Assembly: GCA_905478415.1 (NCBI GenBank)
Contig: CAJQIG010000001.1
Span: 72,818-136,817 of the forward strand
Direction: 5' to 3'
DNA length: 64,000 nucleotides
Origin: an uncultured Patescibacteria group bacterium
GTDB taxonomy: Bacteria; Patescibacteriota; Microgenomatia; UBA1400; PJMF01
Within the stretch, counting starts at the first letter, position 1. The number at the start of each line of letters is the position of its first letter. Position numbers and translations under genes: made by a program. The notes under the pieces are model-generated. The model saw nothing but the letters and a program-made list of their open reading frames with translations, ran no database searches and was not told where the DNA came from. Positions 28,449-60,870 of the stretch are shown piece by piece.

Positions 28449-28468
28449 CTGGTGTTCAGTCTAGTTTT

Positions 28469-28504
28469 GCTTTTTAAATGGGTCAGGCGCGAAGCGCCTG
28501 ACCC
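28469..28504 (-). terminator. GC-rich perfect hairpin (possible inter-operon terminator)
   Basis: GGGTCAGGCGC-GAA-GCGCCTGACCC (28480-28504) is an 11-bp perfect stem in an AT-rich spacer. The minus-strand 3' flank AUUUAAAAAGC is only weakly U-rich. Confidence 0.35.
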
Positions 28505-28541
28505 ATACATTGTACTTCAAAGTACTACTGATTGACTACGT

Positions 28542-29881: not shown

Positions 29882-29886
29882 ATGTT

Positions 29887-31086: not shown

Positions 31087-31090
31087 GGGT

Positions 31091-43258: not shown

Positions 43259-44257
43259 TTAGTTAAGTGACGGATCAATTGGTTTACTAGGATCAGTTGG
43301 ATCAGTGGGTAAAATAAGATTTGCATCTTGGTCAGCTGCACTGAAGATAAGGATGGCAATACCACCAGCTTCTCGATATCCTTGGATGAGCCCTTTGACC
43401 ATTGGAAAGTTTACACTGACATGAGGAAGAAAGAGTGTTTCCATCTCTCCTCCGTCGGCTGGAATCAGCTGAAGCATAAACATGCCAGCTTCAATTCCTG
43501 CTTCAAAGAAAATATATTGTTCTCCCGAATTTAGTTCGACTCCGTAGCCATCATATTCATCGTCTTCTTCGAAGTCATCTTCGTAACCTAGGTCATCTCC
43601 ATATTCAGCATAGTATTGGTCTTCTTCGGTCCATTCGTCACCATAGTCGTTATAATCTGGGTTATCCTCATCCATGTAGGAGTTTGGATCGTCTAGTATG
43701 TTGTCGACGGTAGTGAGCATTTCGTCAATGTCATCTAAATCTTGGTAGTCTTCTGCCCATCCGTCAGAGTTGAATTCACCTGCTTTACCAGCATCATAAA
43801 TCACAATTTCTGTAGCAGTGGTGTTTGGTTTTGTCGGTGGACCAATATAGGTATCCAGTTCGGCAAACGCAGGATCTAAAAAAGCTAAGTCAAATCCAGG
43901 TGCATCTTTGTAACTAGCTTCTTTTGAAATGTGAGGTTTAACCATACCTTCGGCGGGTCCCGAATTAAATGTTTGATTTGATTTTTTGGGCTCACTCTCT
44001 TTTTCGAAGGCAGGAATGTATTGAGATCTTATCCATTCGCCATCGACTTCAGTTAAGCGATAGTGTGGCATGTGATCAGCTTTTTCAGAGTGAATAAAAT
44101 CTAGAGCCTGATTGACTTCGAGAATAATGGCTTGCAGTTTGGCCACGTAGCCAGCAGGTTTTTTTTCGTAGAGGGATTCAAGGGTGGTTAGTAATTGAGG
44201 GAGCCGCTCAGTTTTATAGTATTCTTTCAGTACTTGTAAATCTCGCTCTTGTTTCAT
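43259..44257 (-). CDS. Hypothetical highly acidic protein with a D/E/Y-rich low-complexity core
   Basis: 332 aa with a helical N-terminus, a central DEDNPDYNDYGDEWTEEDQYYAEYGDDLGYEDDFEEDDEYDGYG stretch and a conserved-looking C-terminus (FEAGIEAGMFMLQLIPADGGEMETLFLPHVSVNFPMVKGL). Confidence 0.55.
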   Translation of the reverse strand: MKQERDLQVLKEYYKTERLPQLLTTLESLYEKKPAGYVAKLQAIILEVNQALDFIHSEKADHMPHYRLTEVDGEWIRSQYIPAFEKESEPKKSNQTFNSGPAEGMVKPHISKEASYKDAPGFDLAFLDPAFAELDTYIGPPTKPNTTATEIVIYDAGKAGEFNSDGWAEDYQDLDDIDEMLTTVDNILDDPNSYMDEDNPDYNDYGDEWTEEDQYYAEYGDDLGYEDDFEEDDEYDGYGVELNSGEQYIFFEAGIEAGMFMLQLIPADGGEMETLFLPHVSVNFPMVKGLIQGYREAGGIAILIFSAADQDANLILPTDPTDPSKPIDPSLN

Positions 44258-47400: not shown

Positions 47401-47961
47401 CACACGTGCAAATTCATTGAGATATAAGGCTTCACCCTTACTATATTCTCTGTTCATTGTTGAATAGAGGGGCCAGTGTAAGTATTTTTGTCCAGCACCA
47501 TAGACAGCTATGGCCAGAACAGTTGTCGCCAAGACTATCAAAAAAAGTTTAACATCACTTCTCTTTTTGATGGCACTAAAGGTAAAGAAAAAAAGTAGGA
47601 AGTATTCAATGTATCGAAAAAGATGCAAGCCACTTTTTCCAATGTGAATGAGTTGCGGAGGTATAGTGGTGGTTAAAAAGAGACCAAACAATATTGAAAT
47701 GAAGCCAACAAGTATGTAGAGTAAGATCAAAAAGGTAAGCGGTGTTTTCCATGCAATCTTTTTTCTGAGTACTTGCACAAACCAAATAATTGCTGTGATG
47801 AAGACTAAGATATCTTCGGCTCGTGCTCTAACAATATAACCAGGAAGGACATCAAAAAGTGGAATTTTGGGAAAGAGTGGAATAAAGGCAAAAAGAAAAG
47901 CTGTTGTGATTAACAGTGCAGAAGTGTCAAACCAGTGAGTTATCTTTTTGAGCGGTTGCAT
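44416..47961 (-). CDS. Large fusion membrane protein: Wzy_C/O-antigen-ligase-like N-terminal part plus extra transmembrane segments and a roughly 420-aa C-terminal extracytoplasmic domain
   Basis: Start chosen at MQPLKKITHWFD (47961), by analogy with the paralog at 32533-34212. The first 560 aa align block-for-block with that paralog. The C-terminal domain has metallophosphoesterase-like strings (ITGDILYNYD, FAPGNFDL, IYIISGDMKPN), which is only a weak call. Confidence 0.6.
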   Translation of the reverse strand: MQPLKKITHWFDTSALLITTAFLFAFIPLFPKIPLFDVLPGYIVRARAEDILVFITAIIWFVQVLRKKIAWKTPLTFLILLYILVGFISILFGLFLTTTIPPQLIHIGKSGLHLFRYIEYFLLFFFTFSAIKKRSDVKLFLIVLATTVLAIAVYGAGQKYLHWPLYSTMNREYSKGEALYLNEFARVQSTFAGHYDLTAYLVLVLPLLFAVLLSTKSNRAKIGLIAAQIAGVWLLIAGSSKSSLAAYGVTIAIVLFFKFKETHRSVTTILKWATLSLLGGITIVFGVLFIAPDFYRSLAVLSKTVPPVHAIVLKIDAKLPVNSPLKLPGENRSPEGNLKPDDVYIDVPDLVQIAITDPETGVTTYRLVEKERTWSENALKYGLSMGIRLDTLWPLALKGFMKNPLTGSGYATLTKGDTTVYTEADSTDNNYLRVLGETGLLGFILFFGSVFYLLKTAYRTTTATDSLIKTLNIGFIAGTVGLLLNALTIDVFAASKVAFTFWSLSGIILASYYIAHPVQAQTKAVDLGRSLKKYVTKYGVLLLFGTCFFFLVYQNPFAERSAVLNFAANPSGAEHIAAARCFLRTGTVELCRGSAVYPARLDLYAILLLPLLKIYNNPGIYFVFNLTLSLTSLWMFTQLLKKISKHAFIRTTALVLLISSQAFITAVSTPSAGIFLLFLLLLTLPLTQRSRAITLFGAIATGVVALLVADTTAALIALLILGFAFALEWLYQKFEHQKGLTHLFIPMLKVGTVTLASILFTFTYLSRTTLETTLQNFRSTQPNWRYTAVSQINDFFYENTVGENPFFDPTKTPYLITAMNPYYVDMFSNGMYTLLPLSKEQTYMDHPNSVWEEDHSYKNLTALYHQILASNSLFASNFDLDANTTPSFSALHTEFDLDIIRLGCNYTCILYQVREQLPFTSPTPKTINAPLQLETLPEDYRFTVASTRFSFAENLSVHSLSALVSAYKQVGKEAEFSVITGDILYNYDQEQIDALSQLYLETPEAPPTLFAPGNFDLLPQKKFETAYHHFYTPEDYFLFISTNQKGETTQLQQHYILNQILDLEKMDTISTVFIFIDRANWVGYDANLQSMSQMSISNSPSSADSFMIQQVLPRLEKLPSKNIYIISGDMKPNQSAAQFSYQKEGSNITFLASGLSNTTGDRFIEFSKNAAKWSYSFKKVE

Positions 47962-48007
47962 GCTTTTTATTGTATCGTATTTATTTGATGAAATGGATCG
48001 AGATTTG

Positions 48008-48032
48008 GTGCGGGTCGCAAAGCGACCCGCAC
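48008..48032. other. GC-rich perfect hairpin in a short intergenic spacer
   Basis: GTGCGGGTCGC-AAA-GCGACCCGCAC is an 11-bp perfect stem with no U-tract on either strand. Confidence 0.4.
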
Positions 48033-48050
48033 TGTTGGAAATGGGGAAAA

Positions 48051-48233
48051 CTATGGAACAAGGATCGATGCTCCAATCACAATACAAGCGATTGCGACAA
48101 GAGCTAAGACAAAAATAATACGGGCTGCGGTATCAGTAACGTGCACTCCTTCGGCCCAAGGGCTTCTGAGTACCAAAAGTAAGATGAGCCCTACCAGGGC
48201 TCCAATGATTATTAGTGATAATCCAAGGGGCAT
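48051..48233 (-). CDS. Possible small two-transmembrane-helix membrane protein (60 aa)
   Basis: MPLGLSLIIIGALVGLILLLV...FVLALVAIACIVIGASILVP forms two hydrophobic helices. It sits between two large membrane-protein genes on the same strand. Confidence 0.35.
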   Translation of the reverse strand: MPLGLSLIIIGALVGLILLLVLRSPWAEGVHVTDTAARIIFVLALVAIACIVIGASILVP

Positions 48234-48251
48234 GGTTATTCTCCTTGATAC

Positions 48252-48446
48252 TTATGTGGTTGCCGCAAGGACGAACCAAAAGTATCCTAGGCCGGAAAGA
48301 AGTAAGATCATTCCGATAAAAAAAAGTTTTGCAGTTGTGTTTTGATAAACAATGTTTGTACTGTTTTGTTCTGTTCTAGACCTAAAAAATACAACGATCA
48401 GTAGAATTAATCCACAAATCACACTTATAGATGCAATTGTAGCCAT
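48252..48446 (-). CDS. Possible small two-transmembrane-helix membrane protein (about 64 aa from MATIASISVI)
   Basis: Two hydrophobic helices. The ORF track gives 48252-48509 using an upstream ATG. Same-strand operonic context. Confidence 0.3.
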   Translation of the reverse strand: MATIASISVICGLILLIVVFFRSRTEQNSTNIVYQNTTAKLFFIGMILLLSGLGYFWFVLAATT

Positions 48447-48538: not shown

Positions 48539-50314
48539 TTATATGTCGTATTTGACAATTAAGAACTCATTGTTCTCTAGTATGGTTTGATAGTTTTCAT
48601 TTGTAAATATTGTATGTATTGTGTCGATTGACTCCTCTAGCATTAGTTTTTTGTTAAATTTTATGTATGTGACGTCTTTTTGATTGAGAAGCTCATACGT
48701 ATCTAAACTTTTTGAGTTTTCGACTGAAGTTCTAAAGTTATGAATAAAATCATCAATGTGTTTTGGTTGGAAGCCGCTGTAGCCATTAACAAGCTGGCAG
48801 TCATAATGCATGTTGTTCAAGAGCATTTTGGTCCAGTAATTTAGGGTTATCAAGACATGAGTTTTTGGTTGTTCAGGTGCAAATGGATATTCTAAAAGCA
48901 CGTCATTTACTTGACATTCAGATATCAAGTAATTGTAGCTGTCATCTCGGTAGGTATCTACAGCAGTTCTTTGTTTAATTGGAACGATTTCTAGTATGTA
49001 CAATGCTGTTATCAACGTAATAATAAAAATTGCTTTCTTAATTGTATATGATTTAAAAATTGAGTTGAGTGCTACACCAACAAAGTAAAACATACCCACT
49101 TGAACTACAAAAAACCATCTAGATATCACTCGTAATGCTGAAAAAAAAGGAGTTAGTTTAAGTGGAAAAATATACGGCAATGGTATGGCAAGATATTTTC
49201 CATTAAGACTGAGTCGAGGTCCGAGTACTGCTATTATTCCCCATCCGAGCAACAACATAAAGAAATGAAAGATTTGCCTTTCTTTCTTTGTTAAGGAAGA
49301 TTTCCTTAGTTTTTTTATTCCATATGTAACAACAATTAAAAGTATGAAGCCTGTCCCAAATGTTTCTCCTCCAAGGCGATGGTTATGGACATTTATTTTT
49401 TTATAGAATGATTCAACCCAGAAGCTTGGAAGCGGGTTAAAAAAGAAATCAGTGATTTGCATCGAATGATTTATATAGGTATCCGCTGAACGTTCTATCT
49501 CATATACTCTTTGGATTTGCACAAATTTGAAAACAAAGTAACCTGCAATAACAAGAAAGCCCAAGAAAAATAATGATCCTTGTTGTATGGACTTCAGTAA
49601 AGCTTTGGAATCAAAAGCTTTTTTATATTTTTTCCTAAAAAGGTTTTTGAATTGGATATGAGTACTCATTTTCAAAAGAAAGAATATACCTGAAATTGTT
49701 AAGGAGTAAATGCCAATGTAGACTGCAGCTAAAAATTGCAATCCGCTCAAGAAACCAGCGAACACATATTCTGATCTTTTTTTTGCTGTGAGTAGTACTC
49801 CTAATGAAAAAAAGAAAAACCAATATGAGATCATTTGATAATGTGCATACATGGTAAATACATACGGTGAAAAAGTGAAAAGTAATGTCAACAAAAATAT
49901 AGTTTTTTTATCTTTAAAAACTTTATTCCAAAAGAACTGTAGAGAAATGATATTTAGTAATCCAACTGCTAGAAAAACAAGATTGTGAGTTGTTATGTAG
50001 TCTTCTGTAAAAGGGAAAATAAATAGTCCCAAAATACTTTGTGGGAGTAGCAGATCAGTAAAGTACTTTCCTCCTGGAGTTGGATAGAACATTGAGATAT
50101 TTCCGAAATTCATGAAATCTAGTGTGGAAATGTGCTGTATATTCTGTTGGAGAATGTAGACCATCAATGGATAGTCGTACCAATCTGATAAAGCTGAAGA
50201 AATGTGTAACACCAGTGTTTTATTGAAAAGTAAAAATAAAAAGAATATAAATAAGACCGAGAGGATGGAAAACGCTTTTGCTTTTGAGAGTTGTATTAAT
50301 TTTTTCTTTGACAT
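48539..50314 (-). CDS. Large polytopic membrane protein, GT-C-like (function unknown)
   Basis: 591 aa with many transmembrane helices and a C-terminal soluble domain. Very AT-rich. Divergently arranged with the plus-strand island. Confidence 0.5.
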   Translation of the reverse strand: MSKKKLIQLSKAKAFSILSVLFIFFLFLLFNKTLVLHISSALSDWYDYPLMVYILQQNIQHISTLDFMNFGNISMFYPTPGGKYFTDLLLPQSILGLFIFPFTEDYITTHNLVFLAVGLLNIISLQFFWNKVFKDKKTIFLLTLLFTFSPYVFTMYAHYQMISYWFFFFSLGVLLTAKKRSEYVFAGFLSGLQFLAAVYIGIYSLTISGIFFLLKMSTHIQFKNLFRKKYKKAFDSKALLKSIQQGSLFFLGFLVIAGYFVFKFVQIQRVYEIERSADTYINHSMQITDFFFNPLPSFWVESFYKKINVHNHRLGGETFGTGFILLIVVTYGIKKLRKSSLTKKERQIFHFFMLLLGWGIIAVLGPRLSLNGKYLAIPLPYIFPLKLTPFFSALRVISRWFFVVQVGMFYFVGVALNSIFKSYTIKKAIFIITLITALYILEIVPIKQRTAVDTYRDDSYNYLISECQVNDVLLEYPFAPEQPKTHVLITLNYWTKMLLNNMHYDCQLVNGYSGFQPKHIDDFIHNFRTSVENSKSLDTYELLNQKDVTYIKFNKKLMLEESIDTIHTIFTNENYQTILENNEFLIVKYDI

Positions 50315-50435
50315 ACCGTATGCAATGGATTATTACATGTCTAAGTGAATTTATGAAGAAACAGAAGTATAGTATACTAACCAAACTTTACTTTATGATT
50401 ATTTGAAGTTTGTTTTAAGAAAGAGTAGCTAAATA
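50315..50435. promoter_or_regulatory. Divergent AT-rich promoter region of the low-GC island
   Basis: 121-nt spacer between divergent genes. Contains TATAGT/TATACT -10-like hexamers and an AAGAAAGAG ribosome-binding site before the 50436 ATG. Confidence 0.3.
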
Positions 50436-52970
50436 ATGTCAAACATGTTCTCTCATAGCACAAAACGAATATTGAGTAATAAATTTTTTAAAATTGCTGC
50501 CTTTTTTGTATTTATATTAATACTTTTTGTTTATCAGATATTTGCACTAGTAAAAAATCGTGCTAAGTCTTTAGATGATCAACAAATCACCACACTCGTT
50601 CAAAGGGTCTCATTCAGTTCAGAACAAAATTTTAGTAAAATATTGTCTAAAGACAAAAGAACTTTCTCCTTCAAGGCTGAAAATAATAATTTAGGCATCA
50701 TTGCTGTTTTAATAAATAATTATGACCAAGTGAATTCTGACCAACTCACATTTCGAATACGGGAAAAGACTTCTGATAATTGGTATTTCCAAGAGAAATA
50801 TACTACATCCAAGATGAATGCCTCCTATTTCTATACTTTTGGATTTCCACTAATAGCTGAATCAAAAGGAAAAGAATACTTGGTTGAGATAGAATCAATT
50901 GCTGGAGTTCCTAATAATTCAATTTCTTTACATTCTGATTCGCGTTTTTTTATGGCTAAATATTCGTATCCAAAGTCGTATTTGTTTGATCATAGTGATG
51001 AAATTGTTCCATTTACAATTAAAAGAATAGAAGGATATCGCGAGTATCTTTCAAAGGCAGATGTCTTCGCTCTATTTTTGAAAACCTTGGGATGGACAGC
51101 TGTAGTGGGTATTATATTCTATATTTCTAAGAAATATTTTCTTGAGATTATTGCAGGGTATTTGAATAGTATTTACGCAAGAAAGAATGAATTAGCAGAA
51201 TATTTAAAAGACTATGTTGGTTCAAAGTCTTTCAAAAGTGAACTGCTTTTTGTTTTGACTCCAGTAATGGCGTTGTTAGATTTTGCTTTTTTTTCTCCTT
51301 TTACAAAAGAAATTGGGATACCATTGCTTGTTATAATTTCTCTTTTAAATATCGGATATTTATATTTAATATATGTATCCTTTAATGCAATTTTAAGTTT
51401 TGTTAGAGATAAAATATATTATCCAATTGCTTTTCCAGTAGTAGTATTTGTTGTCAGTAGATTGTTTTTTCTTGATGCTGTACCCCGATGGGATAGTGCA
51501 GTTTACTTTCATGCATTACTTAAGAGCATGGCAAAGTTTGATTACAGTATCGGGTCGTTTTTAGGTTTTAATTGGTTTGGGCACCCGTCAATGGGTTTTG
51601 GGCTTTATTCCTCCATTTTTCAATTTCTAAAACCAGATAGCATTTTAATGGTAAATATTGGAAATATTTTCTTAGGAATTATTGCAATTATTTCTTTTTA
51701 CTTAATTAGTCTCTACTTTTTTGAAAATAGAAAAAAAATTGAACTTGTTTTATTAACTACAATGTTTGCTATAAACCCCTTGTTTTTTAGCGTCTCCACT
51801 GCTTTTTTACCAGATTTTGGAGTGATTGTATTTTTCTTAGCAGCATTAGCAGCATTTTTTAATAAAAAACATTTACTGACAACATTCTTTTTTCTATTAA
51901 TGGTTTTTTCTAAAGAAACTGGTGTTTATACATATGGTTTCTTTCTTTTGTTTATTTCAATATTTGTTTTATTGCAACGTCTTTCTAAAATCCATCCAGA
52001 AAAAATAATCAGTTTTTTCTTTGCTCTGATTCCAGGGCTTAGTTTTCTTTTATACTTCATACATAGTAAGGGTAGACATTGGACTGCTGGAAAGCCAATT
52101 GTTATTTCAAATGATTGTTTTTTTTGTTTTTCGTTTCAACCTGCTCACTTTATTCAAAATATTGAAGTTATGTTTATACTAAATTTTAGTTGGATTTTAA
52201 GTGTCATAATCATTATCTCTTTAATTCTTCATTTTTTTAAACGTCAACAATTTTCTTCTTTTTCAAGTGCAGTGAAAAAACAAGAGTTTAAATCTTTAGT
52301 TGCAACTTTTGTTAGTTTTGTCGTCTTTTTTATGGTTTTTGTTATTTATATTATTCCAAGTTATATGACAATTTCTGTTGTGTTTTTACTATTTATAGCT
52401 TATTTTTCATTACTACAATTAAAAATAAACTCTGGATTTAGAATTTTGATACTACTATTTGTCACAACTATATTTTTGATTCAAAGCTTTTTTAACATAG
52501 ATTGGTTGTCTTCGAAGATCTTTGGTGAGTTTAGCCTTGGGAATCACCAAGTGGTAAAAGTTGGTTCTGAATATTCCTGTGATGGATTGATTTATAATAC
52601 TCAATATTTGTACATAGATCGTTTAATTACAAAGTTCCATCAGGAGTTTGGTATTAGTGAGAGTGATTCCATTATTATGAACGCTTCACACTGGCATAGT
52701 TTTTACCTTGGTGGAGGTGGGTACGAAGTATATATAGACCCAAATACCTTGCAAAAAACGTTTATGAAAACAAATGGATTTCGTCCTCAGATATACCCTT
52801 TGAAGGCAGCTAAAACATACCCTGATGAGGCATACTATTTAGCTTTCCCATGGTTAGAAGATGAAGGTAGTTCTCTTGAGATTCTCAAAGGGTTCTATAG
52901 TATTGATAAGGAAACAAGAATTACTACTGGTGGATACTGGATAACTGTATATAGTCTGTCTAAGAAATAA
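50436..52970 (+). CDS. Large polytopic membrane protein (844 aa), putative GT-C-type glycosyltransferase
   Basis: N-terminal transmembrane helix, a roughly 200-aa soluble region, at least 12 transmembrane helices including a LDAVPRWDSAVYF loop, and a C-terminal soluble domain. Confidence 0.5.
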   Translation: MSNMFSHSTKRILSNKFFKIAAFFVFILILFVYQIFALVKNRAKSLDDQQITTLVQRVSFSSEQNFSKILSKDKRTFSFKAENNNLGIIAVLINNYDQVNSDQLTFRIREKTSDNWYFQEKYTTSKMNASYFYTFGFPLIAESKGKEYLVEIESIAGVPNNSISLHSDSRFFMAKYSYPKSYLFDHSDEIVPFTIKRIEGYREYLSKADVFALFLKTLGWTAVVGIIFYISKKYFLEIIAGYLNSIYARKNELAEYLKDYVGSKSFKSELLFVLTPVMALLDFAFFSPFTKEIGIPLLVIISLLNIGYLYLIYVSFNAILSFVRDKIYYPIAFPVVVFVVSRLFFLDAVPRWDSAVYFHALLKSMAKFDYSIGSFLGFNWFGHPSMGFGLYSSIFQFLKPDSILMVNIGNIFLGIIAIISFYLISLYFFENRKKIELVLLTTMFAINPLFFSVSTAFLPDFGVIVFFLAALAAFFNKKHLLTTFFFLLMVFSKETGVYTYGFFLLFISIFVLLQRLSKIHPEKIISFFFALIPGLSFLLYFIHSKGRHWTAGKPIVISNDCFFCFSFQPAHFIQNIEVMFILNFSWILSVIIIISLILHFFKRQQFSSFSSAVKKQEFKSLVATFVSFVVFFMVFVIYIIPSYMTISVVFLLFIAYFSLLQLKINSGFRILILLFVTTIFLIQSFFNIDWLSSKIFGEFSLGNHQVVKVGSEYSCDGLIYNTQYLYIDRLITKFHQEFGISESDSIIMNASHWHSFYLGGGGYEVYIDPNTLQKTFMKTNGFRPQIYPLKAAKTYPDEAYYLAFPWLEDEGSSLEILKGFYSIDKETRITTGGYWITVYSLSKK

Positions 52971-52996
52971 GTTTTTATTTGTGATAAATTAACATT

Positions 52997-53617
52997 ATGC
53001 TAATAAACTCAATACTACAATATCCTCTCATCTGGGATCTTTCACAAATTATTTTTGGGGCAAACAAGCAAAAGAAAGAGTTATACCGATCACTCATTAA
53101 AAAGAAGGGTGCGCTGCTTGACTTTGGTTGTGCTGACGGAAATACTTTTTTAGCATTTAAAAATTTTGATTATACTGGTCTTGACATTGATGCCAAGGCC
53201 ATTGCTCATGCTGAACAAAAGTATGTTGATTTTCCTAATGCCACATTTATTTGTGATGATGTGTTGAAAAACAACCTCCCAAAAGAGAGTTATGATACCA
53301 TTTTATTTGCTGGTACAGCTCATCATCTTCCTGACAAAGATTTATTCAAGATTACAAGGGCGCTTGCGCGTTTACTAAAAAAAAATGGCTGCTTGTATTT
53401 TGTTGATCCTGTTAAAGATACATCGAGAAAATCAAAATTACTTTCTTTCTTAATATCTCTTGACCAAGGGAAGTTTCATAGAGATGAAAAATTTTATACT
53501 AAGAATTTAAAAAAATTTTCAAAAGACCTTAAGCCCAAATTCACTAGAACACATTTCATGACTGGTACTTTTATGCCTCAGCCAACGTATTATATTGCTA
53601 AATTTGTTAAGGCCTAA
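52997..53617 (+). CDS. Class I SAM-dependent methyltransferase
   Basis: 206 aa. LLDFGCADGNTFLAF is the SAM motif I (Methyltransf_11/12-like). Confidence 0.7.
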   Translation: MLINSILQYPLIWDLSQIIFGANKQKKELYRSLIKKKGALLDFGCADGNTFLAFKNFDYTGLDIDAKAIAHAEQKYVDFPNATFICDDVLKNNLPKESYDTILFAGTAHHLPDKDLFKITRALARLLKKNGCLYFVDPVKDTSRKSKLLSFLISLDQGKFHRDEKFYTKNLKKFSKDLKPKFTRTHFMTGTFMPQPTYYIAKFVKA

Positions 53618-53619
53618 TT

Positions 53620-55239
53620 ATGAGTTTTCTTGCTCCTAGATCATATTTTTCTCAGATGGGAGAAGACAAGTATATTGATACTGAAATTTTTTTAGGTAAA
53701 AGCAATGGTGTGTTTTTAGATATTGGAGCACATGATGGAAAAACATTTAGTAACACCTATTTCTTAGAGAAGTATCGTAACTGGAACGGTATTTGCGTGG
53801 AGCCACTTCCAGATATTTTTAAAAAACTCAAGAAAAATCGAAAAGCCATAGCAATCAATGCCGGTGTGGGTTTAAAAAAAGGAAAAGAAAAGTTTTTAGA
53901 GGTTAGTGGTGATGGAAACGCAGAAATGTTTTCTGGCTTACTTGCTTCTTTTGATCCTCGTCAAATTAGAAATATTAAGAAGGAAGTAAAAAAACGTAAT
54001 GGAAAAATAAAAGAAACAGTAATTGATATAGTGCCACTGTCAACTATTCTTAAGAAGAATAAGATTACTCACGTTGATTATTGCTCCATAGATACCGAAG
54101 GTAATGAACTTGATGTCCTAAAGTCAATTGATTTTTCAGCTTGTAGTATAACTTGTTTTACTGTCGAAGACTTATTTGGTAGCAAAGAACTTCGTTCTTT
54201 TATGAAAGAAAAAGGCTATACCTTAGTGAAAACTCTTGATAAGGATTTGGTCTTTCTTCATAAATCTTCAATGCAAATAGGTGGTAATAAAGCAGATGTG
54301 GAAATGGTGAAATCAGGCACGCAGACTCTTTCGGTTGTCATTCATACAAAAAACGAAGAAAAGATGATAGCGGATTGTATTCAGTCTGTTAAAAAGATTG
54401 CAGACGAGATTATTGTTGCTGATATGCAGAGTACAGATAATACAATTGGTATTGCAAAAAAATTAAAAGCAAAAATTATATCAGTCCCAGAGTACGGTTT
54501 TGCTGATCCAGCTAGAAATTTAGCGCTTTCAAAGGTTACAAAGGATTGGGTTCTTGTTCTTGATGCAGATGAAAGGATCACACCAAAACTAGAAAAAAAA
54601 ATAAAAAGATTGATACGCGGTGGAACTTGTGATGTTGTTAGTTTTCCAAGAAAAAACATAATGCTGGGAGGGTGGATTAAGCATGGATTGAGATGGCCAG
54701 ACTATCAAATTCGTTTGTTTAGAAAAGGTTTTGCAAGCTGGAGTGACATGATTCATGATCCGGCTCATTATACGGGGCGTTTTTACAGGCTGCCAGCAAA
54801 GGAAGTAAATGCCTTAGTCCATTATCATAGCGATAGTATTAGTTACTTAATGGATAAAACATACCTCCAGGCCTCTTTAGAACGTTTCTATGATAATCAA
54901 GAAGATTTGTCAATTGATACCATTTACGACAGGATGGGTAAGGAGTTTGTTTGGCGCTTCTTTGAACATGAAGGTTATAAAGATAAAATGCATGGATTAA
55001 TAGTAAATAAATTTATGGAGTTTTATAGGTTTCTAGAATTTGCTATGTATTGGGAGCGAAGTGGCAAACCCGAACTAGCAACAATCAAAGAATTAGATAG
55101 TCTTTGGAATATTGAGAACAAGCTCAATGAAACAACGGACGAACTCAACAGAATTAAAGATTCAAAATTTTATATTTTTTGGAAAGCTTATTCATATTTG
55201 AAAGATTTATTTAAAAATATGCAATCAAAATTACACTAG
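53620..55239 (+). CDS. FkbM-family methyltransferase fused to a GT2 glycosyltransferase
   Basis: 539 aa. The N-terminal half (FLDIGAHDGKTFSNTYFLEKYRNWNGICVEPLP) is FkbM/Methyltransf_21. The C-terminal half (LSVVIHTKNEEKMIADCIQSV...VADMQSTDNT...LVLDADE) is GT2. Confidence 0.7.
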   Translation: MSFLAPRSYFSQMGEDKYIDTEIFLGKSNGVFLDIGAHDGKTFSNTYFLEKYRNWNGICVEPLPDIFKKLKKNRKAIAINAGVGLKKGKEKFLEVSGDGNAEMFSGLLASFDPRQIRNIKKEVKKRNGKIKETVIDIVPLSTILKKNKITHVDYCSIDTEGNELDVLKSIDFSACSITCFTVEDLFGSKELRSFMKEKGYTLVKTLDKDLVFLHKSSMQIGGNKADVEMVKSGTQTLSVVIHTKNEEKMIADCIQSVKKIADEIIVADMQSTDNTIGIAKKLKAKIISVPEYGFADPARNLALSKVTKDWVLVLDADERITPKLEKKIKRLIRGGTCDVVSFPRKNIMLGGWIKHGLRWPDYQIRLFRKGFASWSDMIHDPAHYTGRFYRLPAKEVNALVHYHSDSISYLMDKTYLQASLERFYDNQEDLSIDTIYDRMGKEFVWRFFEHEGYKDKMHGLIVNKFMEFYRFLEFAMYWERSGKPELATIKELDSLWNIENKLNETTDELNRIKDSKFYIFWKAYSYLKDLFKNMQSKLH

Positions 55240-56192
55240 TGAAAAAACACACGTTTTTAATTACTGGCTCAACAGGTTTTATAGGTTCAGTTTTGTTGCG
55301 CACCTTGCTTCGAAGAGGAGAAAAAGTTGCTATTATTTTGCGGAAAGAATCGAATGTTTGGCGCATCAGTGACTTACTGGGTCAGGTCACTATTCATTAT
55401 TCGGACTTATCTTCATTACCTAAGTTAGAGAGTATTATTAAAAAAGTAAAGCCAACTGTTATTTACCATTTAGCTACAAATGGAGCTTATTCATATCAAG
55501 ATAATGCAGATCAAATTATTCAAACAAATATTCTAGGCACATGGAACTTATTGCAAGCATGTAATATAGTTGATTACGAATTATTTGTGAATACGGGCAG
55601 TTCTTCGGAATATGGTTTTAAGCAATTTGCTATGAGGGAAACTGACATTACAGAACCGGCAAGTTATTATGCTGTAACGAAGTGTGCACAGACACTTTTA
55701 TGTTCTCATATTGCTCGTCAAGAAAAAAAACCGATAGTTACTTTGAGACCCTTTTCCGTTTATGGCCCATTTGAAGAGCCTCGTCGCCTTGTTCCCACCT
55801 TAATGATGTCTCTCTTACAGAATAAAAAAATGAGTCTAGTATCTCCGACTATTGCGAGAGACTATATTTATATTGATGATATGGTATCTGCTTATCTTAA
55901 GATAAGTAAACTTAAAATGAATTCTGGTGAGTATTTTAATATTGGTACTGGAGTACAAACAACAATTAAGGAAATAGTAAATAAATCATCGAGAATAAGT
56001 GGAAAAGAAGGCAATTTTATTTGGGAAGGTCTTGATAATAGAAAGTGGGATACAGATGTTTGGGTGGGCGATATATCCAAAGCCAAAAGGCTTTTAAACT
56101 GGCAACCAAAACATTCTTTGGAATCTGGTATAACTGAAACATGGAAGTGGTTTGAAAAAAATTATAAGAAATATAGTTATGAAAAAAAATAA
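55239..56192 (+). CDS. NAD-dependent sugar epimerase/dehydratase/reductase (extended SDR)
   Basis: 317 aa with the Rossmann motif ITGSTGFIGSVLLRTL and the catalytic YAVTK (YxxxK). Confidence 0.7.
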   Translation: MKKHTFLITGSTGFIGSVLLRTLLRRGEKVAIILRKESNVWRISDLLGQVTIHYSDLSSLPKLESIIKKVKPTVIYHLATNGAYSYQDNADQIIQTNILGTWNLLQACNIVDYELFVNTGSSSEYGFKQFAMRETDITEPASYYAVTKCAQTLLCSHIARQEKKPIVTLRPFSVYGPFEEPRRLVPTLMMSLLQNKKMSLVSPTIARDYIYIDDMVSAYLKISKLKMNSGEYFNIGTGVQTTIKEIVNKSSRISGKEGNFIWEGLDNRKWDTDVWVGDISKAKRLLNWQPKHSLESGITETWKWFEKNYKKYSYEKK

Positions 56193-57075
56193 GGTTAGTT
56201 GTGCGATTTGTAATACAGTAGATAATTACTCAGTTTTATACGAACAAAATTACAAAGATGACGATTTTAACGTCGATATTTTTTCTGCTAGAAGGTTACC
56301 AGACAAAATTCATTATCAATTAGTAAAATGCAATTCGTGTGGTCTAGTCCGATCTACTCCAGTTATTGAAAATGACATCTTAAATGACTTGTATGTCAAA
56401 AGTAAATTAACATATAATACAGAAGTTGAAAACTTAAAAACCACCTATCTAGAAGCACTTTCTCCAATTTTAAATAGACTCGCAAAGAAGTCAGCAATTC
56501 TTGAAATTGGATGTGGAAATGGTTTTGTTGTAGAAGAGTTGTGCAAACAAGGGTACACAAATACTTTTGGAATTGAACCTAGCATAGATGCGGTTGAAAA
56601 AGCACCAGATGATTTATCAAAGCGAATTGTACTTGATTATTTCAAGGATGGGCTTTTTAAAGAAAATACATTTAACTTTATTTTCATATTTCAAACTTTA
56701 GATCATATTCCAAACCCTGATCAGTTCTTGAAGGAGTGTCACAGAGTTTTGAAGCCTAATGGATATATCTTTGCATATAATCATGATGTTGAAAGTATTT
56801 CAGCTAAGATCCTCGGTGAGAAAAGCCCCATTTTTGATATAGAACACACTTTTCTTTATAGTACTGATACAATTAAAAAGATATTCAACAAGAATAGATT
56901 TGAGGTGCTTTCAGTTGATAAACCATTGAATACGCTATCTTTAAAACATCTTACCTGGTTACTACCTTTACCTAGAAGAATTAAAAGGTGGTTGTTAAGA
57001 TCGAATAGTTCATTGTTTAATATAAATATAAAGATACCACTTGGTAACCTAGCAATTACGGCAAGGAAAAAATGA
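56179..57075 (+). CDS. Zn-ribbon plus class I SAM methyltransferase (NDP-sugar C-methyltransferase-like)
   Basis: The N-terminus has CAICN...(38 aa)...CNSCG, i.e. CxxC-CxxC, followed by the SAM motif ILEIGCGNGFVVEEL. Start chosen at 56179 (the ORF track gives 56152). Confidence 0.55.
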   Translation: MKKNKVSCAICNTVDNYSVLYEQNYKDDDFNVDIFSARRLPDKIHYQLVKCNSCGLVRSTPVIENDILNDLYVKSKLTYNTEVENLKTTYLEALSPILNRLAKKSAILEIGCGNGFVVEELCKQGYTNTFGIEPSIDAVEKAPDDLSKRIVLDYFKDGLFKENTFNFIFIFQTLDHIPNPDQFLKECHRVLKPNGYIFAYNHDVESISAKILGEKSPIFDIEHTFLYSTDTIKKIFNKNRFEVLSVDKPLNTLSLKHLTWLLPLPRRIKRWLLRSNSSLFNINIKIPLGNLAITARKK

Positions 57076-57782
57076 AATTCACTGAACGTCAAAAGAAATT
57101 GAGAAAAAGACTAATGGAGGTTGTTTTTAAAGCCAACGCTTCGCATATCGGATCGTCTATAAGTGTGATTGATATAATTGATTCTATTTTTGAAATTAAA
57201 TCTAGTGAAGACCGTTTTGTACTCTCAAATGGACATGCAGCAGCAGCCTATTATGTAGTCTTAGAGAAAAACAACTATCTAAAAAATATTGACTTAAATA
57301 CATTGGGGGTTCATCCGGATAGAGATTTAAAAAAACATATTCATGTTTCAACAGGTAGCTTAGGTCAAGGATTACCGATAGCATTAGGAATGGCTTTGGC
57401 AGATAAAAAGAAAACAATTTATTGTTTAATTTCTGATGGAGAATGTGCTGAAGGTAGTATCTGGGAAGCTCTGAGGGTGTATCAACAAGAAGCTCCTAAC
57501 AATTTGAAAATTGTGGTATCAGTGAACGGTTGGGGGGCTTATGATAAAATCTCCTCGAGAGATTTGAAAAAAAGATTTACTGGCTTTGGTCTCAAGGTAG
57601 TAAGTATAAACGGTCATGACCAAAATCAAATTGTGACTTCACTTAAAGAAAAATATGATAAACCAACACTATTTTTTGCTAAAACAAATTCTGATCAATT
57701 ACCCTTTTTGAAAGACTTAGTTGCTCATTATCATTCAATGAGTGAAGAAGAGTATCAGTTAGCTGTAAAGAAATTTTCATGA
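57072..57782 (+). CDS. Transketolase N-terminal (ThDP-binding) subunit
   Basis: 236 aa with SNGHAAAAYYVV, HVSTGSLGQGLPIALGMALA and the ThDP GDG-type motif ISDGECAEGSIWEA. Confidence 0.75.
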   Translation: MKFTERQKKLRKRLMEVVFKANASHIGSSISVIDIIDSIFEIKSSEDRFVLSNGHAAAAYYVVLEKNNYLKNIDLNTLGVHPDRDLKKHIHVSTGSLGQGLPIALGMALADKKKTIYCLISDGECAEGSIWEALRVYQQEAPNNLKIVVSVNGWGAYDKISSRDLKKRFTGFGLKVVSINGHDQNQIVTSLKEKYDKPTLFFAKTNSDQLPFLKDLVAHYHSMSEEEYQLAVKKFS

Positions 57783-58276
57783 CAGACTATAGCCAAAACC
57801 TACGAAGAAGATTTGCTGATGAACTCTATGCTGCAATGGAAAAGAACAGAGATATTTTTGTTTTAACAGGTGATCTGGGGTATAGAGTTTTAGATCAAAT
57901 TAAGGTTGATTTCCCAGACCGGTTTCTTAATGTTGGTGCTGCAGAGCAATCTCTCATTGGAATTGCTGTGGGAATGGCTCTTGAAGGAAAGATTCCGGTT
58001 GTATACTCTATTACTCCCTTTCTTTTGTATAGACCGTTTGAAACCATTAGAAACTACATTGATCATGAAAAAATTCCAGTGAAGCTCATTGGTTCTGGAC
58101 GAGACAAAGATTATGGCCATGATGGTTTTTCTCACTGGTCATGTGAAGATAGAGATGTGATGAAAATATTTAGTAATATTAAATCAGCTTGGCCAGATTC
58201 AGCTGATGAAGTCTCAGTTCTTCTGCCCAAGCTGCTGAGTGATACAAAACCTTGGTATCTAAACTTGAAAAGATAA
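57779..58276 (+). CDS. Transketolase pyrimidine-binding-domain subunit (short C-subunit)
   Basis: 165 aa. GAAEQSLIGIAVGMALEGKIPVVYSITPFL matches the transketolase central domain. Has a 4-nt overlap with the N-subunit gene. Confidence 0.7.
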   Translation: MTDYSQNLRRRFADELYAAMEKNRDIFVLTGDLGYRVLDQIKVDFPDRFLNVGAAEQSLIGIAVGMALEGKIPVVYSITPFLLYRPFETIRNYIDHEKIPVKLIGSGRDKDYGHDGFSHWSCEDRDVMKIFSNIKSAWPDSADEVSVLLPKLLSDTKPWYLNLKR

Positions 58277-58279
58277 AAT

Positions 58280-59245
58280 ATGGGCAAAAAAAAGATTTCG
58301 GCTATTATTGCTTGTTATAAAGATGAGCAAGCAATTCCTTACATGTACCTTCGTTTGAAAAAAGTATTCAAACAACTTTCTGTTGAACATGAAATAATTT
58401 TTGTGAACGATGGGAGTCCTGACAATACCGAAGAAGTTCTAGAAGCATTAGTGAAAAAAGATGCAGCTGTTATAGCGATAACTCATTCTAGAAATTTTAG
58501 CTCTCAAATGGCTTTTACAAGTGGTATGGATATTGCAACGGGAGATTGTGTAGTCTTTCTTGATGGTGATTTACAAGATCCACCTGAGATGATTGCCAAG
58601 TTTTATACAAAATGGCTGGAAGGTTTTGATGTTGTCTATGGAGTTCGTGTTAAACGGGAGGCTCCCTTGTTAATGCAGTGGGCTTATAAAGGCTTTTATC
58701 GTGTTTTTAATAAAATATCATATATTCATATCCCTTTAGATGCTGGCGACTTTTCTTTGATAGATAAAAAGGTATATAGTGAGTTGAAAAGACTTCCAGA
58801 GCGAGATAGATTCTTGCGAGGTCTAAGAGCTTGGCTTGGTTTTAAACAAGTTGGTGTTCCTTACATTAGACCAGAACGAAAATTTGGTGTAACAACAAAT
58901 AATCTAATTAAAAATTTTCAATGGGCTACAAAAGGTATTTTTTCTTTTTCTTATATCCCATTACAAATAATGACGTTCACCTCTTTAGCTGTATTCTTAC
59001 TTTCGTTATTTGGAATTGTATATCAAATTGCTCTATCCTTATTCTTTCCAGAATCCACACCAGACGGAGTGAGTACCATTATTGTATTAGTGTTATTTAT
59101 TGGTTCAATCCAGCTATTAGGAATTAGTATTTTAGGTGAGTACATTGCTAAAATCTTTGAAGAAGTAAAGCAAAGACCAAAGTATATTGTTAAAAATGTG
59201 TTGAGAAAAAAAGTTTCTTATTCTTTAGATAAAGAAACCGTATAG
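58280..59245 (+). CDS. GT2 polyprenyl-phosphate glycosyltransferase (Dpm1/GtrB/ArnC-like)
   Basis: 321 aa with ISAIIACYKDEQAI...FVNDGSPDNT...FLDGDLQDPP (DxD) and two C-terminal transmembrane helices, as in GtrB/ArnC. Confidence 0.75.
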   Translation: MGKKKISAIIACYKDEQAIPYMYLRLKKVFKQLSVEHEIIFVNDGSPDNTEEVLEALVKKDAAVIAITHSRNFSSQMAFTSGMDIATGDCVVFLDGDLQDPPEMIAKFYTKWLEGFDVVYGVRVKREAPLLMQWAYKGFYRVFNKISYIHIPLDAGDFSLIDKKVYSELKRLPERDRFLRGLRAWLGFKQVGVPYIRPERKFGVTTNNLIKNFQWATKGIFSFSYIPLQIMTFTSLAVFLLSLFGIVYQIALSLFFPESTPDGVSTIIVLVLFIGSIQLLGISILGEYIAKIFEEVKQRPKYIVKNVLRKKVSYSLDKETV

Positions 59246-60870
59246 ATATTACACAAATTAAAACAGCCTTCATGAACTTTTTCTAGTTCAAAGGTTTCAG
59301 AATATTTCTTAAAGGTATTTTTAAATTGACCTGAAGCTTCGATTCCATAGTTAGCCAGATAGATTTTTTCGCCATTTGTAAGCTTTTGTGTATAGGTTTC
59401 CAGTAAACTCTGATTGTTAGGAACTCCCCAGACTTCTAGTTTTTTCTGATTAAAATCCTGCTGTTCATCAAAAGGCAGTACAACATAGGTGTTGTTAGTG
59501 AAAAAATCAACCATATAGGGTGAGGTTAAAGAAATAAGTTGGGCCTGCTCTTCTCTCCTCGAAGAAAAGAACGCATTGTATTCTTGGATCGAAAGGTACC
59601 ACCAAGGTGATTCGGCATACTTCAGATTTAGCATGACTTGTGATTTGAGGGGAAGTAATCTGCTACCTAGGAGTATGATCCCAAGTATAAGAGTGGTTCC
59701 TGGTACAAATAGTTTTTTAGGAATAGAGAGTTTCTTAAGAAGCATTTGAATTCTTTTTTGAGAAGAAATATTATCTAACAAAAGTGCCAGGCCAAGTAGG
59801 ATGGCAAAAAATCCAGTAAAGATATATCTCGAGTCAAATGCATAAAAGGTAGACATAAAAATGGTTTGTGCGAGTGTGCTGATACCTAAGTAGAGGGCAA
59901 ATGTTCGGTGTTTTGGTTTTATAAGTGCGGACAGAATTCCAAGAAACCCCAGCCATCCGATCAGTTTGGAAAACCAAGGTCTGACATCCCACAAAAATCG
60001 AGCTGGATGACCAAGTAAAATCTGCACATATTCAGAAAAATGATCAGCAAAGACTGACATACCAAAGTAACTGTTTGTAACAGTGCTTGATCCTGGCGCT
60101 TGGGTTTTTGGAGTGATAATTCTGAGTAAGAAAGCTATGCTTTTAGCGAAATTATAGGAAAAAGGTAGCAGTAATAGAATTGGAAGCCCAAGTATGATAG
60201 TTGCGATCAGGGTTTGTTTATATTTTTTCTGTCGAAGATTAGGCAAGGCCATCTTGAAAAATTGCACCGCAACCAGAGTAACTACCAGTGGCACATAGGC
60301 AAATTTTGTAAAGTAAAATGCAACTGCAACGGTGCCAGTAGCTAATAAAACTTTTTTAGTTGTCTTTTGAAGCATCAGATAACAACTGAGTAGAAACAGC
60401 GGTACTAGGAGGTTCTCGGCCATAGCTAGAGTTGGCAGCCAGAAAAAGTGATAGCTAGTGACAGTTATGCCAAGCACTAATGCGTGAATAAACGGTTCCT
60501 TGGTGATTTTTTTTAGAATTGCGTACAAGAGTACTACACTCAAATAACTTAAAAATACATTGGTAAAGTAGAAGGTTCTGGGATCAAAAGAAAGTAAAAA
60601 CCCAGGTAATAATGCCAATGAATACCCTTGTGGTACTGACGGGTCACTACCAGGTAGACCAGTTTGCAGTCCCGACCGACAGAGGTTCCAAGTGCCTTCG
60701 GCAATAAAGCATCTAGCCACCGTTACATAGTGAAACGAGTCGGGAAAAGGTTCGAAGTTGGGAATGAGTGTTCGAGTGCTATAGGGGTTACGAAAGAGCA
60801 GAAAAAAGAGGGCAAAACTGGCAAGAAAGAGTGGCCAATGACGACCAAACAGGTACTTAATTTTTTTCAT
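59218..60870 (-). CDS. Polytopic GT-C-like membrane protein
   Basis: 550 aa with many transmembrane helices and a periplasmic loop EPFPDSFHYVTVARCF. Its 3' end overlaps the convergent GtrB-like gene by 28 nt. Confidence 0.5.
   Translation of the reverse strand: MKKIKYLFGRHWPLFLASFALFFLLFRNPYSTRTLIPNFEPFPDSFHYVTVARCFIAEGTWNLCRSGLQTGLPGSDPSVPQGYSLALLPGFLLSFDPRTFYFTNVFLSYLSVVLLYAILKKITKEPFIHALVLGITVTSYHFFWLPTLAMAENLLVPLFLLSCYLMLQKTTKKVLLATGTVAVAFYFTKFAYVPLVVTLVAVQFFKMALPNLRQKKYKQTLIATIILGLPILLLLPFSYNFAKSIAFLLRIITPKTQAPGSSTVTNSYFGMSVFADHFSEYVQILLGHPARFLWDVRPWFSKLIGWLGFLGILSALIKPKHRTFALYLGISTLAQTIFMSTFYAFDSRYIFTGFFAILLGLALLLDNISSQKRIQMLLKKLSIPKKLFVPGTTLILGIILLGSRLLPLKSQVMLNLKYAESPWWYLSIQEYNAFFSSRREEQAQLISLTSPYMVDFFTNNTYVVLPFDEQQDFNQKKLEVWGVPNNQSLLETYTQKLTNGEKIYLANYGIEASGQFKNTFKKYSETFELEKVHEGCFNLCNIYTVSLSKE

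Follow-up and report, generated by a model that had tools for sequence, protein, structure and literature searches.

Positions 48,539–59,245 of the 64-kb stretch of uncultured Patescibacteria DNA analysed here (the whole of which we call the window) hold a compact block of nine genes for membrane glycosyltransferases, methyltransferases and sugar-modifying enzymes. One of them, encoding a membrane protein of 591 amino acids (aa), lies on the minus strand at the left edge (48,539–50,314). It is separated from the others by a divergent, AT-rich intergenic region of 121 bp (50,315–50,435), the presumed promoter region; a promoter and terminator scan gave 72 sites where 48.5 were expected, a result that is uninformative in AT-rich DNA. 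The other eight open reading frames (ORFs) run consecutively on the plus strand from 50,436 to 59,245 neighbours being at most 26 nt apart or overlapping by up to 14 nt. Among the remaining ORFs of at least 150 aa taken as genes, only one more (41,968–42,942) is on this strand, the window otherwise being coded on the minus strand. An earlier note on this DNA had described a strand flip for eight genes and had assigned their domains; the tightly packed plus-strand run bears out the former, and searches of Pfam, NCBIfam and PDB confirmed each domain call.

At the head of the operon stands an 844-aa membrane glycosyltransferase with the glycosyltransferase C (GT-C) fold (50,436–52,970, plus strand). 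It begins with a transmembrane helix (TM1), followed by an extracytoplasmic beta-sandwich (about residues 53–177) that resembles carbohydrate-binding modules (CBMs), a transmembrane core (187–696) and a C-terminal alpha/beta domain. The family is rare, with 18 matches in a word-indexed search of 5.8 billion proteins, and we found no description of a GT-C family with such an N-terminal CBM-like domain. The minus-strand 591-aa protein also has the GT-C fold. Its homologues carry DUF6311 (PF19830), a family for which no described function was found in the literature searched. An invariant D44-W45-x-D47-x-P49 motif follows its TM1, and in a Foldseek search of the PDB with its AF2 model (predicted local distance difference test (pLDDT) 87.7, predicted template modelling score (pTM) 0.90), the top 21 matches were all GT-C enzymes, with STT3 first (6.9e-8), then AglB, DPY19, AftD, PglB and ArnT.

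Immediately to the right of the block, on the minus strand, lies the gene for a 550-aa conserved Pacebacteria membrane protein (59,218–60,870; GC content 0.387) that belongs to the flank and served as our synteny anchor. By profile–profile comparison only (hhalign probability 92.8% against the 844-aa family and 86.5% against DUF6311), it is remotely GT-C-like; a sequence profile search found no solved structure for the family. The earlier note had the island bracketed by two GT-C-like membrane proteins, and while the 591-aa and 550-aa proteins are both GT-C-like, the 550-aa gene is conserved backbone and lies outside the island. None of the 591-, 844- and 550-aa proteins had a Pfam match even at E ≤ 10, only some homologues giving weak PMT_2 matches. 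Membership of the PMT_2/ArnT-like family (PF13231) was thus rejected for all three: the fold is shared, the sequence family is not.

Downstream of the 844-aa gene are seven more genes, set out here in order. A 206-aa class I S-adenosylmethionine (SAM)-dependent methyltransferase (MT206; 52,997–53,617; Methyltransf_25/11/12/31/23, E values 2e-15 to 5e-12) is followed by a soluble 539-aa fusion (53,620–55,239) of an FkbM methyltransferase (residues 34–201; PF05050, 5e-22) with a family 2 glycosyltransferase (GT2; residues 238–378; PF00535, 2.4e-22), whose GT2 part is weakly nearest to GmaR, SunS and ThuS in the PDB. Next comes a 317-aa extended short-chain dehydrogenase/reductase (SDR; 55,239–56,192) that is GalE-like (Epimerase 3.8e-45, GDP_Man_Dehyd 4.8e-46), carries the motifs TGSTGFIG, GSSSEYG and YAVTK, and has 4-epimerases of UDP-glucuronic acid or UDP-hexoses (6zl6, 4zrm and MoeE5) as its nearest PDB chains.

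The SDR gene overlaps that of a 298-aa zinc-ribbon methyltransferase (ZnMT; 56,179–57,075; Methyltransf_23, 1.9e-20), for which an alternative TTG start at 56,152 would give 307 aa. Its N-terminal Cys4 element (C8, C11, C51 and C54) is invariant among three aligned orthologues. The best PDB matches were TcaB9 (7e-10) and a KijD1-type ‘Sugar 3-C-methyl transferase’ (2e-6), the alignment covering only residues 42–252 of the 416 in these matches; no Pfam match was found in ZnMT beyond the methyltransferase domain, and only about 40 residues of it follow the aligned part. Membership of the nucleoside diphosphate (NDP)-sugar C-3-methyltransferase family was rejected, as the C-terminal NDP-sugar-binding domain (about 160 aa) is absent. 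The ZnMT family comprised about 203 clusters at E ≤ 1e-30 among 1.84 billion representatives, with members typically of about 300 aa.

Two short genes then encode the halves of a split enzyme of the transketolase family, which uses thiamine diphosphate (ThDP). The 236-aa ThDP-binding (PP) subunit (TK-N; 57,072–57,782; Transketolase_N, PF00456, 4e-17; DXP_synthase_N, 1e-12) has the N component of a split-chain transketolase as its nearest PDB chain (6yak, 5.8e-25), and the ThDP/Mg motifs LSNGH and SDGECAEGS...VNG can be read in its sequence. The 165-aa pyrimidine-binding (Pyr) subunit (TK-Pyr; 57,779–58,276; Transket_pyr, PF02779, 2.4e-19, residues 8–165) has the catalytic-Glu motif GAAEQ and GHDGFSHW. 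The subunit stops where PF02779 is almost complete (profile position 169 of 174), and Transketolase_C (PF02780) was not found in it; NCBIfam transketolase scores of the pair were all far below cut-offs. The operon closes with a 321-aa polyprenyl-phosphate glycosyltransferase of the GtrB/ArnC/PgfS type (58,280–59,245), a GT2 domain with C-terminal transmembrane helices. It matched Synechocystis GtrB (5ekp) at 1.3e-69 over residues 5–307 and ArnC at 1e-36; the NCBIfam models PgfS (2e-68) and ArnC (7e-42) were both under their equivalog cut-offs. A DxD motif (FLDGDLQD) and a hydrophobic C terminus are evident in the sequence.

The composition of the block departs sharply from its surroundings. 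In 1-kb windows, guanine and cytosine (GC) content fell from about 0.40–0.43 to 0.29–0.35 between 49 and 60 kb, and it was 0.324 over 48,539–59,245 against 0.408 in the rest of the window. In 2-kb windows, the GC content of the island lay at z −3.9 to −7.6 relative to background, and the tetranucleotide L1 distance at z 5.4 to 18 with a maximum of 2.1 outside the island. The composition drop read by the earlier note is therefore real, the GC profile being anything but flat, although its figure of below 30% applies only to about 50–53 kb and not to the rest of the block. GC content at third codon positions (GC3) averaged 0.2545 in the eight plus-strand genes and 0.3385 in the 43 other ORFs (Mann–Whitney P = 6e-6), and the five soluble cassette enzymes had GC contents of 0.30–0.38. 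Because the soluble enzymes and GC3 are low too, hydrophobic proteins alone do not account for the low GC content. Unlike the operon, the 591-aa gene has a host-like GC3 of 0.316, with first- and second-position values (GC1 0.375, GC2 0.275) as low as those of low-GC orthologues. Given this host-like GC3 beside low GC1 and GC2, the gene was probably acquired earlier than the operon or separately from it, and apparently from a similar source.

Comparison with relatives located the edges of the block. The left edge is the stop codon of the 591-aa gene (48,539), adjoining a unit of hairpin, ribosome-binding sequence and small-peptide gene that is common to L007, the closest relative found with a long contig, whose backbone proteins are 50–79% identical to those of the window. 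The right edge is the stop codon of the 550-aa gene, the product of which is conserved at its C terminus to the last residues. Because the peptide unit is shared with L007 and the C terminus of the 550-aa protein is conserved, both junctions can be placed at gene ends. A mosaic junction inside the 550-aa gene was ruled out, identity to close relatives being above that to the low-GC clade along the full length. The last 10 codons of the GtrB-like gene run antisense into the 3′ end of the 550-aa gene and have no counterpart in homologues; alignment of the protein to those of two lower-GC relatives (L011 and L012) ends at residue 311, position 59,212.

In L007, the gene order is GT2, GT1, the 550-aa homologue, a 64-aa peptide, Wzy_C, a 307-aa protein, an epimerase on the opposite strand, PMT_2, GT4 and GT4. 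This is the order of the window read on its minus strand, except that the peptide/Wzy_C unit follows the 550-aa homologue immediately; because the two lie directly side by side, the site in L007 is empty. A second relative (L008) also lacks the block, and a third (L013) lacks the eight-gene operon at the site, with a gene in the slot of the 591-aa gene whose product is 67% identical. L007 has its own copy of the 591-aa protein (46% identical), placed elsewhere in its locus. A whole block kept in identical context in all relatives with housekeeping annotation, which the earlier note had named as refuting its reading, was thus not what we observed.

The same operon was present in L011 and L012, two Patescibacteria contigs whose loci are 27–31% GC throughout: an 834-aa protein, MT206, FkbM–GT2, SDR, ZnMT, TK-N, TK-Pyr and GtrB, with Wzm/Wzt before it and a 673-aa membrane protein (weak PMT_2 match) after it. 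Identity of the cassette proteins to those of L011 and L012 was 45–88% (70–73% for FkbM–GT2 and 81–88% for TK-Pyr), whereas that of backbone proteins to L011 and L010, another relative, was 33–41%. MT206 orthologues lie directly downstream of the 844-aa homologue in L010, L011 and L012 (61–71% identity). The donor lineage of the operon suggested by these comparisons is a relative with lower GC content.

The exact window proteins were found in the marine metagenomes of SOLA22 and of a second study, on a scaffold of 584 kb and on many shorter contigs. All 16 contigs read from this near-identical population carry the cassette next to the 550-aa gene, and a strain-level presence/absence polymorphism was rejected on this ground; presence/absence variation lies between species-level lineages, not strains. 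The earlier note had called the cassette ‘horizontally acquired or hypervariable’. Composition, the empty L007 site and the discordance in identity favour acquisition, whereas hypervariability among strains was not seen, the block being carried by every population contig. Some population contigs had split genes: the 550-aa gene (98 + 413 aa; L006, 3,770–5,421), TK-N (130 + 104 aa; L032, 3,463–4,173) and the GtrB-like gene (176 + 44 aa; L029, 7,626–8,266). Those in L029 and L032 may be assembly errors, coverage in the contig names being about 3–5×.

Part of the operon recurs as a unit elsewhere. SDR and ZnMT form one 611-aa ORF in L011 (14,730–16,565), and SDR, ZnMT and TK-N one 848-aa ORF in L012 (9,086–11,632). 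In the window, SDR and ZnMT are in different frames, with a 14-nt overlap and an ATG start at the boundary. We scanned a ZnMT alignment against one genome per GTDB species and obtained 13 loci. SDR, TK-N and TK-Pyr lay within a few kb of ZnMT in every one of them, and a GtrB-like gene was adjacent in 10; gene order varied. A frameshift pseudogene at the SDR/ZnMT boundary was ruled out, separate genes being commoner among these 13 other loci. The genomes were assigned to Shapirobacteria, Pacebacteria, Levybacteria, Microgenomates and Paceibacterota, together with three Gammaproteobacteria metagenome-assembled genomes (MAGs; L016, L017 and L019) and one MAG of Anaerolineaceae (Chloroflexota; L020), these four standing outside Patescibacteria. 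GC content is only 28% at the L016 and L017 loci, where the module proteins match those of the window at 53–71% identity, a level like that seen for other Patescibacteria. The pattern suggests transfer across phyla, possibly among marine bacteria, with contamination of the MAGs as the other possibility. A tblastn search with ZnMT against PLSDB plasmids gave only two unannotated matches, 25% identical.

Across the 15 module SDRs compared, the GSSSEYG motif and YxxxK were near-identical and an Asp-Glu pair was absent. An RmlB-type NDP-hexose 4,6-dehydratase role was ruled out on this ground; the motif Glu may be used in the manner of GMD or UXS. Membrane proteins of 883–890 aa next to the module in L015 and L017 share only the N-terminal beta-sandwich of the 844-aa protein (32–37% identity). 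L010 (10,001–22,517) has an alternative cassette, in which an 838-aa GT-C homologue and the small methyltransferase are retained and are followed by a 676-aa protein (weak PMT_2 match), a DUF6311 protein, a 40%-identical GtrB-like gene, a DegT aminotransferase, two SDRs and a nucleotidyltransferase; it ends with the start of an acetolactate-synthase-type ThDP enzyme that runs off the locus. This cassette resembles a yersiniose-like branched-sugar pathway.

Taken jointly, these results are best explained, and we think with good probability, by a block of foreign DNA inserted in a conserved cell-envelope glycan locus next to ruvCAB and encoding a lipid-carrier glycosylation system of the three-component type. 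That the block serves to load a sugar on polyprenyl phosphate and transfer it outside the membrane, as the earlier note had proposed, is supported by the logic of pairing GtrB with GT-C enzymes, by homology and fold, and by conserved gene neighbourhoods. In the cytoplasm, the GalE-like SDR, ZnMT and the two-subunit transketolase-family ThDP enzyme would tailor a common sugar. The likely route is that the SDR makes a keto intermediate, that the adjacent carbon (or a hydroxyl) is methylated, and/or that the transketolase-like enzyme adds a two-carbon extension or branch. Tailoring could take place on a nucleotide sugar or after transfer to the lipid; the latter is plausible because ZnMT has no nucleotide-sugar domain and because Citrobacter youngae and DprE1/E2 provide precedents. 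The GtrB-like GT2 would then join the sugar to polyprenyl phosphate, a flippase encoded outside the block would move the lipid-linked sugar across the membrane, and the 844-aa GT-C enzyme would transfer it to a surface glycan or protein, with the CBM-like domain probably holding the acceptor. The DUF6311 GT-C protein may take part in this step too, and the FkbM–GT2 fusion and MT206 would add or methylate a further residue. From the enzyme families, the product would be a methylated and/or C-branched sugar; the reaction directions, the identity of sugar and acceptor, and expression of the operon are likewise inferred.

Several observations weigh against insertion. We found no integrase or transposase in the block, where all nine ORFs have glycan-related assignments, no tRNA in the 64-kb window, and, at the flanks, no direct or inverted repeats other than AT-rich matches expected by chance; nor did the window hold any Rfam family. 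Identity discordance taken alone is weakened as evidence by the fact that enzymes generally evolve more slowly than membrane proteins. Because integrase, transposase, tRNA and flanking direct repeats are lacking, the mechanism of insertion is a deduction, and for the same reason recombination within the conserved locus is the most economical one: most likely, the eight-gene operon (50,436–59,245) was acquired when this site recombined with the corresponding locus of a relative with lower GC content. The lack of mobility genes and repeats would also suit a block that is ancestral and was lost by deletion from relatives including L007; its low GC content would then reflect the amino acids encoded and a local bias in mutation. 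In favour of this reading, the nine proteins include three membrane proteins that are very hydrophobic or rich in Lys and Asn, a composition that depresses GC1 and GC2; GC3 of the 591-aa gene is host-like, and L013 has an orthologue of it in the same slot; and the block is fixed in every near-identical population contig. Nevertheless, we consider an ancestral block improbable, since all eight operon genes, the five soluble enzymes included, have a lower GC3 than almost every one of the 43 other ORFs, the operon is missing from the site in three relatives of differing distance, and cassette proteins are far closer to those of L011 and L012 than flanking proteins are to those of L011 and L010. 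The operon is moreover on the strand opposite to the rest of the window, and the 10-codon run of the GtrB-like gene into its neighbour looks like a junction artefact. It is similarly unlikely that the cassette was acquired but is now a non-functional, decaying remnant. In its favour, the 64-kb window lacks the Wzm, Wzt and 673-aa membrane protein of the L011/L012 cassette, SDR and ZnMT, which share one ORF in those contigs, have an ORF each here, and some low-coverage contigs have split TK-N or 550-aa genes. All nine ORFs are however intact and full length relative to homologues, the ATG with a 14-nt overlap is typical of translational coupling, separate SDR and ZnMT genes are the commoner arrangement, the block is kept across contigs from two studies, and the disrupted copies are on contigs of 2–5× coverage, where assembly errors are likely.

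A functional, foreign glycosylation cassette still has to account for findings that count against the proposed chemistry and delivery. The block encodes no flippase (GtrA, MATE or ArnEF type), no ORF of at least 100 aa besides the nine genes being present and none matching a flippase family, and no nucleotidyltransferase, so that the starting sugar is not indicated. Because Wzm/Wzt and the 673-aa protein are missing from the window, the system here may be incomplete. Transketolase-family enzymes normally use sugar phosphates and aldehyde acceptors, and in the literature searched we found no characterised member acting on an NDP- or lipid-linked sugar. The SDR motif fits epimerase, oxidase and decarboxylase roles alike, and ZnMT, which does not have the NDP-sugar-binding C-terminal domain of characterised C-3-methyltransferases, could equally be an O- or N-methyltransferase. 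One alternative retains the machinery with a different target, namely O-glycosylation of proteins (pilins, S-layer or envelope proteins), as by streptococcal Pgf and the eukaryotic and actinobacterial protein O-mannosyltransferases (PMTs). We regard this as possible but doubtful: PgfS scored 231 bits against an equivalog cut-off of 500 bits and GtrB matched at a similar E value, the locus is rich in polymer genes (Wzy_C, many GT1, GT2 and GT4 genes, and a Wzm/Wzt ABC transporter in L011 and L012), and the N-terminal domain of the 844-aa protein is CBM-like, while GT-C fold similarity does not predict the class of acceptor. A further alternative makes no use of an unusual sugar at all, taking the split transketolase as the pentose-phosphate enzyme of the organism, the methyltransferases as unrelated housekeeping enzymes and their position as coincidence. 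The Pfam, NCBIfam and PDB matches to genuine transketolases, a functional split-chain enzyme included, and the intact catalytic motifs would fit, and in the reduced genomes of Patescibacteria one enzyme may serve several roles. Yet TK-N is translationally fused to SDR–ZnMT in L012, the transketolase pair is linked to ZnMT and SDR at all 13 loci across phyla, and the Pyr subunit has no Transketolase_C. L020 encodes a separate full-length transketolase next to a transaldolase–PGI protein, so its split enzyme is not the housekeeping one. Split transketolase and methyltransferase genes also occur together in an actinomycete exopolysaccharide (EPS) cluster (PMC13390465), and on balance we find a housekeeping role very improbable. 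At the level of chemistry we advance more tentatively, as a possibility that we would not yet call probable, that the SDR–ZnMT–split transketolase–GtrB module is an undescribed pathway in which the transketolase-family enzyme forms a C–C bond on a nucleotide- or polyprenyl-phosphate-linked keto- or aldehydo-sugar. The product would be C-methylated, two-carbon-branched or chain-extended and would be delivered by the rare CBM-bearing GT-C enzyme, and the pathway would have spread among Patescibacteria, marine Gammaproteobacteria and Chloroflexota.

The host genome is that of an uncultivated marine, Pacebacteria-like member of Patescibacteria; of the 131 homologues of the 550-aa protein, some are labelled Pacebacteria or Patescibacteria by source records. 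The glycan locus extends over 27–63 kb, interrupted by ruvC, ruvA and ruvB, and contains GT1, GT2 and GT4 transferases, two PMT_2 GT-C proteins, two Wzy_C proteins and an epimerase. Proteins of the GT-C type are unusually dense in it (27,000–63,300), comprising PMT_2 proteins at 31,091–32,530 and 40,392–41,885, the 550-, 591- and 844-aa proteins and the C-terminal half of a 1,223-aa protein. A second, shallower GC dip at 28,000–31,100 (0.35–0.39 in 1-kb windows; genes 0.36–0.38) covers GT2 and GT4 glycosyltransferase genes at 28,994–31,086 and may be another, older exchanged segment of the locus.

The left flank of the block, outside the island, consists of the large Wzy_C gene and two small peptide genes on the minus strand (44,416–48,446). 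The 1,223-aa ORF (44,416–48,087) encodes a fusion: its N-terminal half is Wzy_C/O-antigen-ligase-like and 46% identical to a separate 559-aa ORF (32,533–34,212, minus strand), and its C-terminal region is similar to the 550-aa GT-C-like protein. It is 50% identical to the L007 homologue, and because that alignment begins at residue 43, the true start is probably M43, at an ATG near 47,961, and not the TTG at 48,087. Directly upstream are two tandem genes for peptides of about 60 aa with two transmembrane helices (48,252–48,446 and 48,051–48,233, minus strand), preceded by a conserved hairpin and by the ribosome-binding sequence ‘ACTTTTCTTTAAAA(T/G)GAGG’. L007 has one copy of this peptide (64 aa; 11,827–12,021). 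Apart from these peptides, no small membrane proteins are encoded near the block, which has no flippase. Between the epimerase and Wzy_C lies a gene for a 332-aa protein (43,259–44,257, minus strand) without a Pfam match and with a long low-complexity stretch rich in Asp, Glu and Tyr; it is only 35% identical to its L007 counterpart, far below its neighbours.

Low-GC cassettes in polysaccharide loci and GtrB/GT-C systems are well known, and at that level the finding is ordinary. We found no description in the literature of a linked or fused SDR–ZnMT–split transketolase module with a GtrB-like enzyme. The SDR, ZnMT and split transketolase genes of this compact module keep together in all 13 genomes, across phyla, usually with the GtrB-like gene adjacent, and no characterised pathway explains its chemistry. 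If a transketolase-like enzyme does act on an activated sugar, this would provide a new way of making branched or higher-carbon sugars as well as a new type of biocatalyst. Patescibacteria are uncultivated and host-dependent, and their surface glycans, about which to our knowledge almost nothing is known, probably mediate attachment and escape from phages or hosts. The locus points to diversification of their surface by swaps of whole cassettes in a conserved locus, as pathogens do with O-antigens and capsules.

Among known systems, those of the GtrA/GtrB/GtrC type and their relatives (O-antigen glucosylation in Shigella and Salmonella, CsbB/GtcA/YfhO in Firmicutes, ArnC/ArnEF/ArnT, and the pentofuranose system of C. 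youngae, GT136) use the same kind of GT2 polyprenyl-phosphate transferase with C-terminal transmembrane helices. They likewise have one or more GT-C-fold transferases in the cluster and form a swappable add-on inside a polysaccharide locus. A GT-C enzyme with an acceptor-binding CBM and an auxiliary GalE-like SDR epimerase is on record for three-component systems (PMC11127046), and the C. youngae system shares with the block both the CBM-like domain on the GT-C enzyme and the auxiliary SDR. The block differs in lacking a flippase, in having GT-C enzymes without a Pfam match (844 aa) or of DUF6311, and in the N-terminal position of its CBM-like domain. No described three-component system has a methyltransferase and a transketolase-family ThDP enzyme, both of which are present here.

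The pairing of a keto-sugar-capable SDR with a ThDP enzyme recalls the pathways of yersiniose A (YerE) and eurekanate: SDR-made NDP-4-keto sugars receive a ThDP-dependent two-carbon unit through YerE, and for eurekanate an acetyl transfer to UDP-4-keto-xylose has been proposed (PMC9306805, PMC10338323). YerE is a single-chain member of the acetolactate-synthase/pyruvate-oxidase family (TPP_enzyme_N/M/C), unlike the ThDP enzyme of the block, which is of the transketolase/DXS family, consists of separate PP and Pyr chains and has no third domain; an acetolactate-synthase-type ThDP enzyme does stand beside the GtrB-like gene in the L010 cassette and the L016 locus. ZnMT resembles TcaB9, TylC3 and KijD1 in its N-terminal Cys4 zinc element followed by a class I SAM domain, and differs from them in length (about 300 aa against about 416 aa for the TcaB9 type), in its low identity and in lacking the C-terminal domain, which in TcaB9 binds the dTDP-sugar.

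The split-chain transketolase of Carboxydothermus hydrogenoformans (6yak) likewise has separate PP and Pyr subunits with ThDP/Mg and catalytic-Glu motifs. Transketolase_C is kept in the 6yak partner, in AMIS_56720 and in the L020 homologue (309 aa), and is absent from the 165-aa Pyr subunit of the block. We know of no reported fusion of a transketolase to an SDR and a methyltransferase, and our literature search found no characterised example of transketolase genes in O-antigen, capsule or nucleotide-sugar contexts. The nearest parallel is the wps-2 EPS cluster of Actinoplanes missouriensis, which includes an uncharacterised methyltransferase and a split transketolase pair (PMC13390465), that is, a split transketolase near a SAM methyltransferase, as here. 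Compared with cassette exchange at O-antigen and capsule loci, the difference here lies between species-level relatives, with no polymorphism detected within the population, and in an uncultivated Patescibacteria lineage. In other respects the two are alike: with no integrase or repeats, and absent in relatives, a lower-GC block sits between conserved glycan genes.

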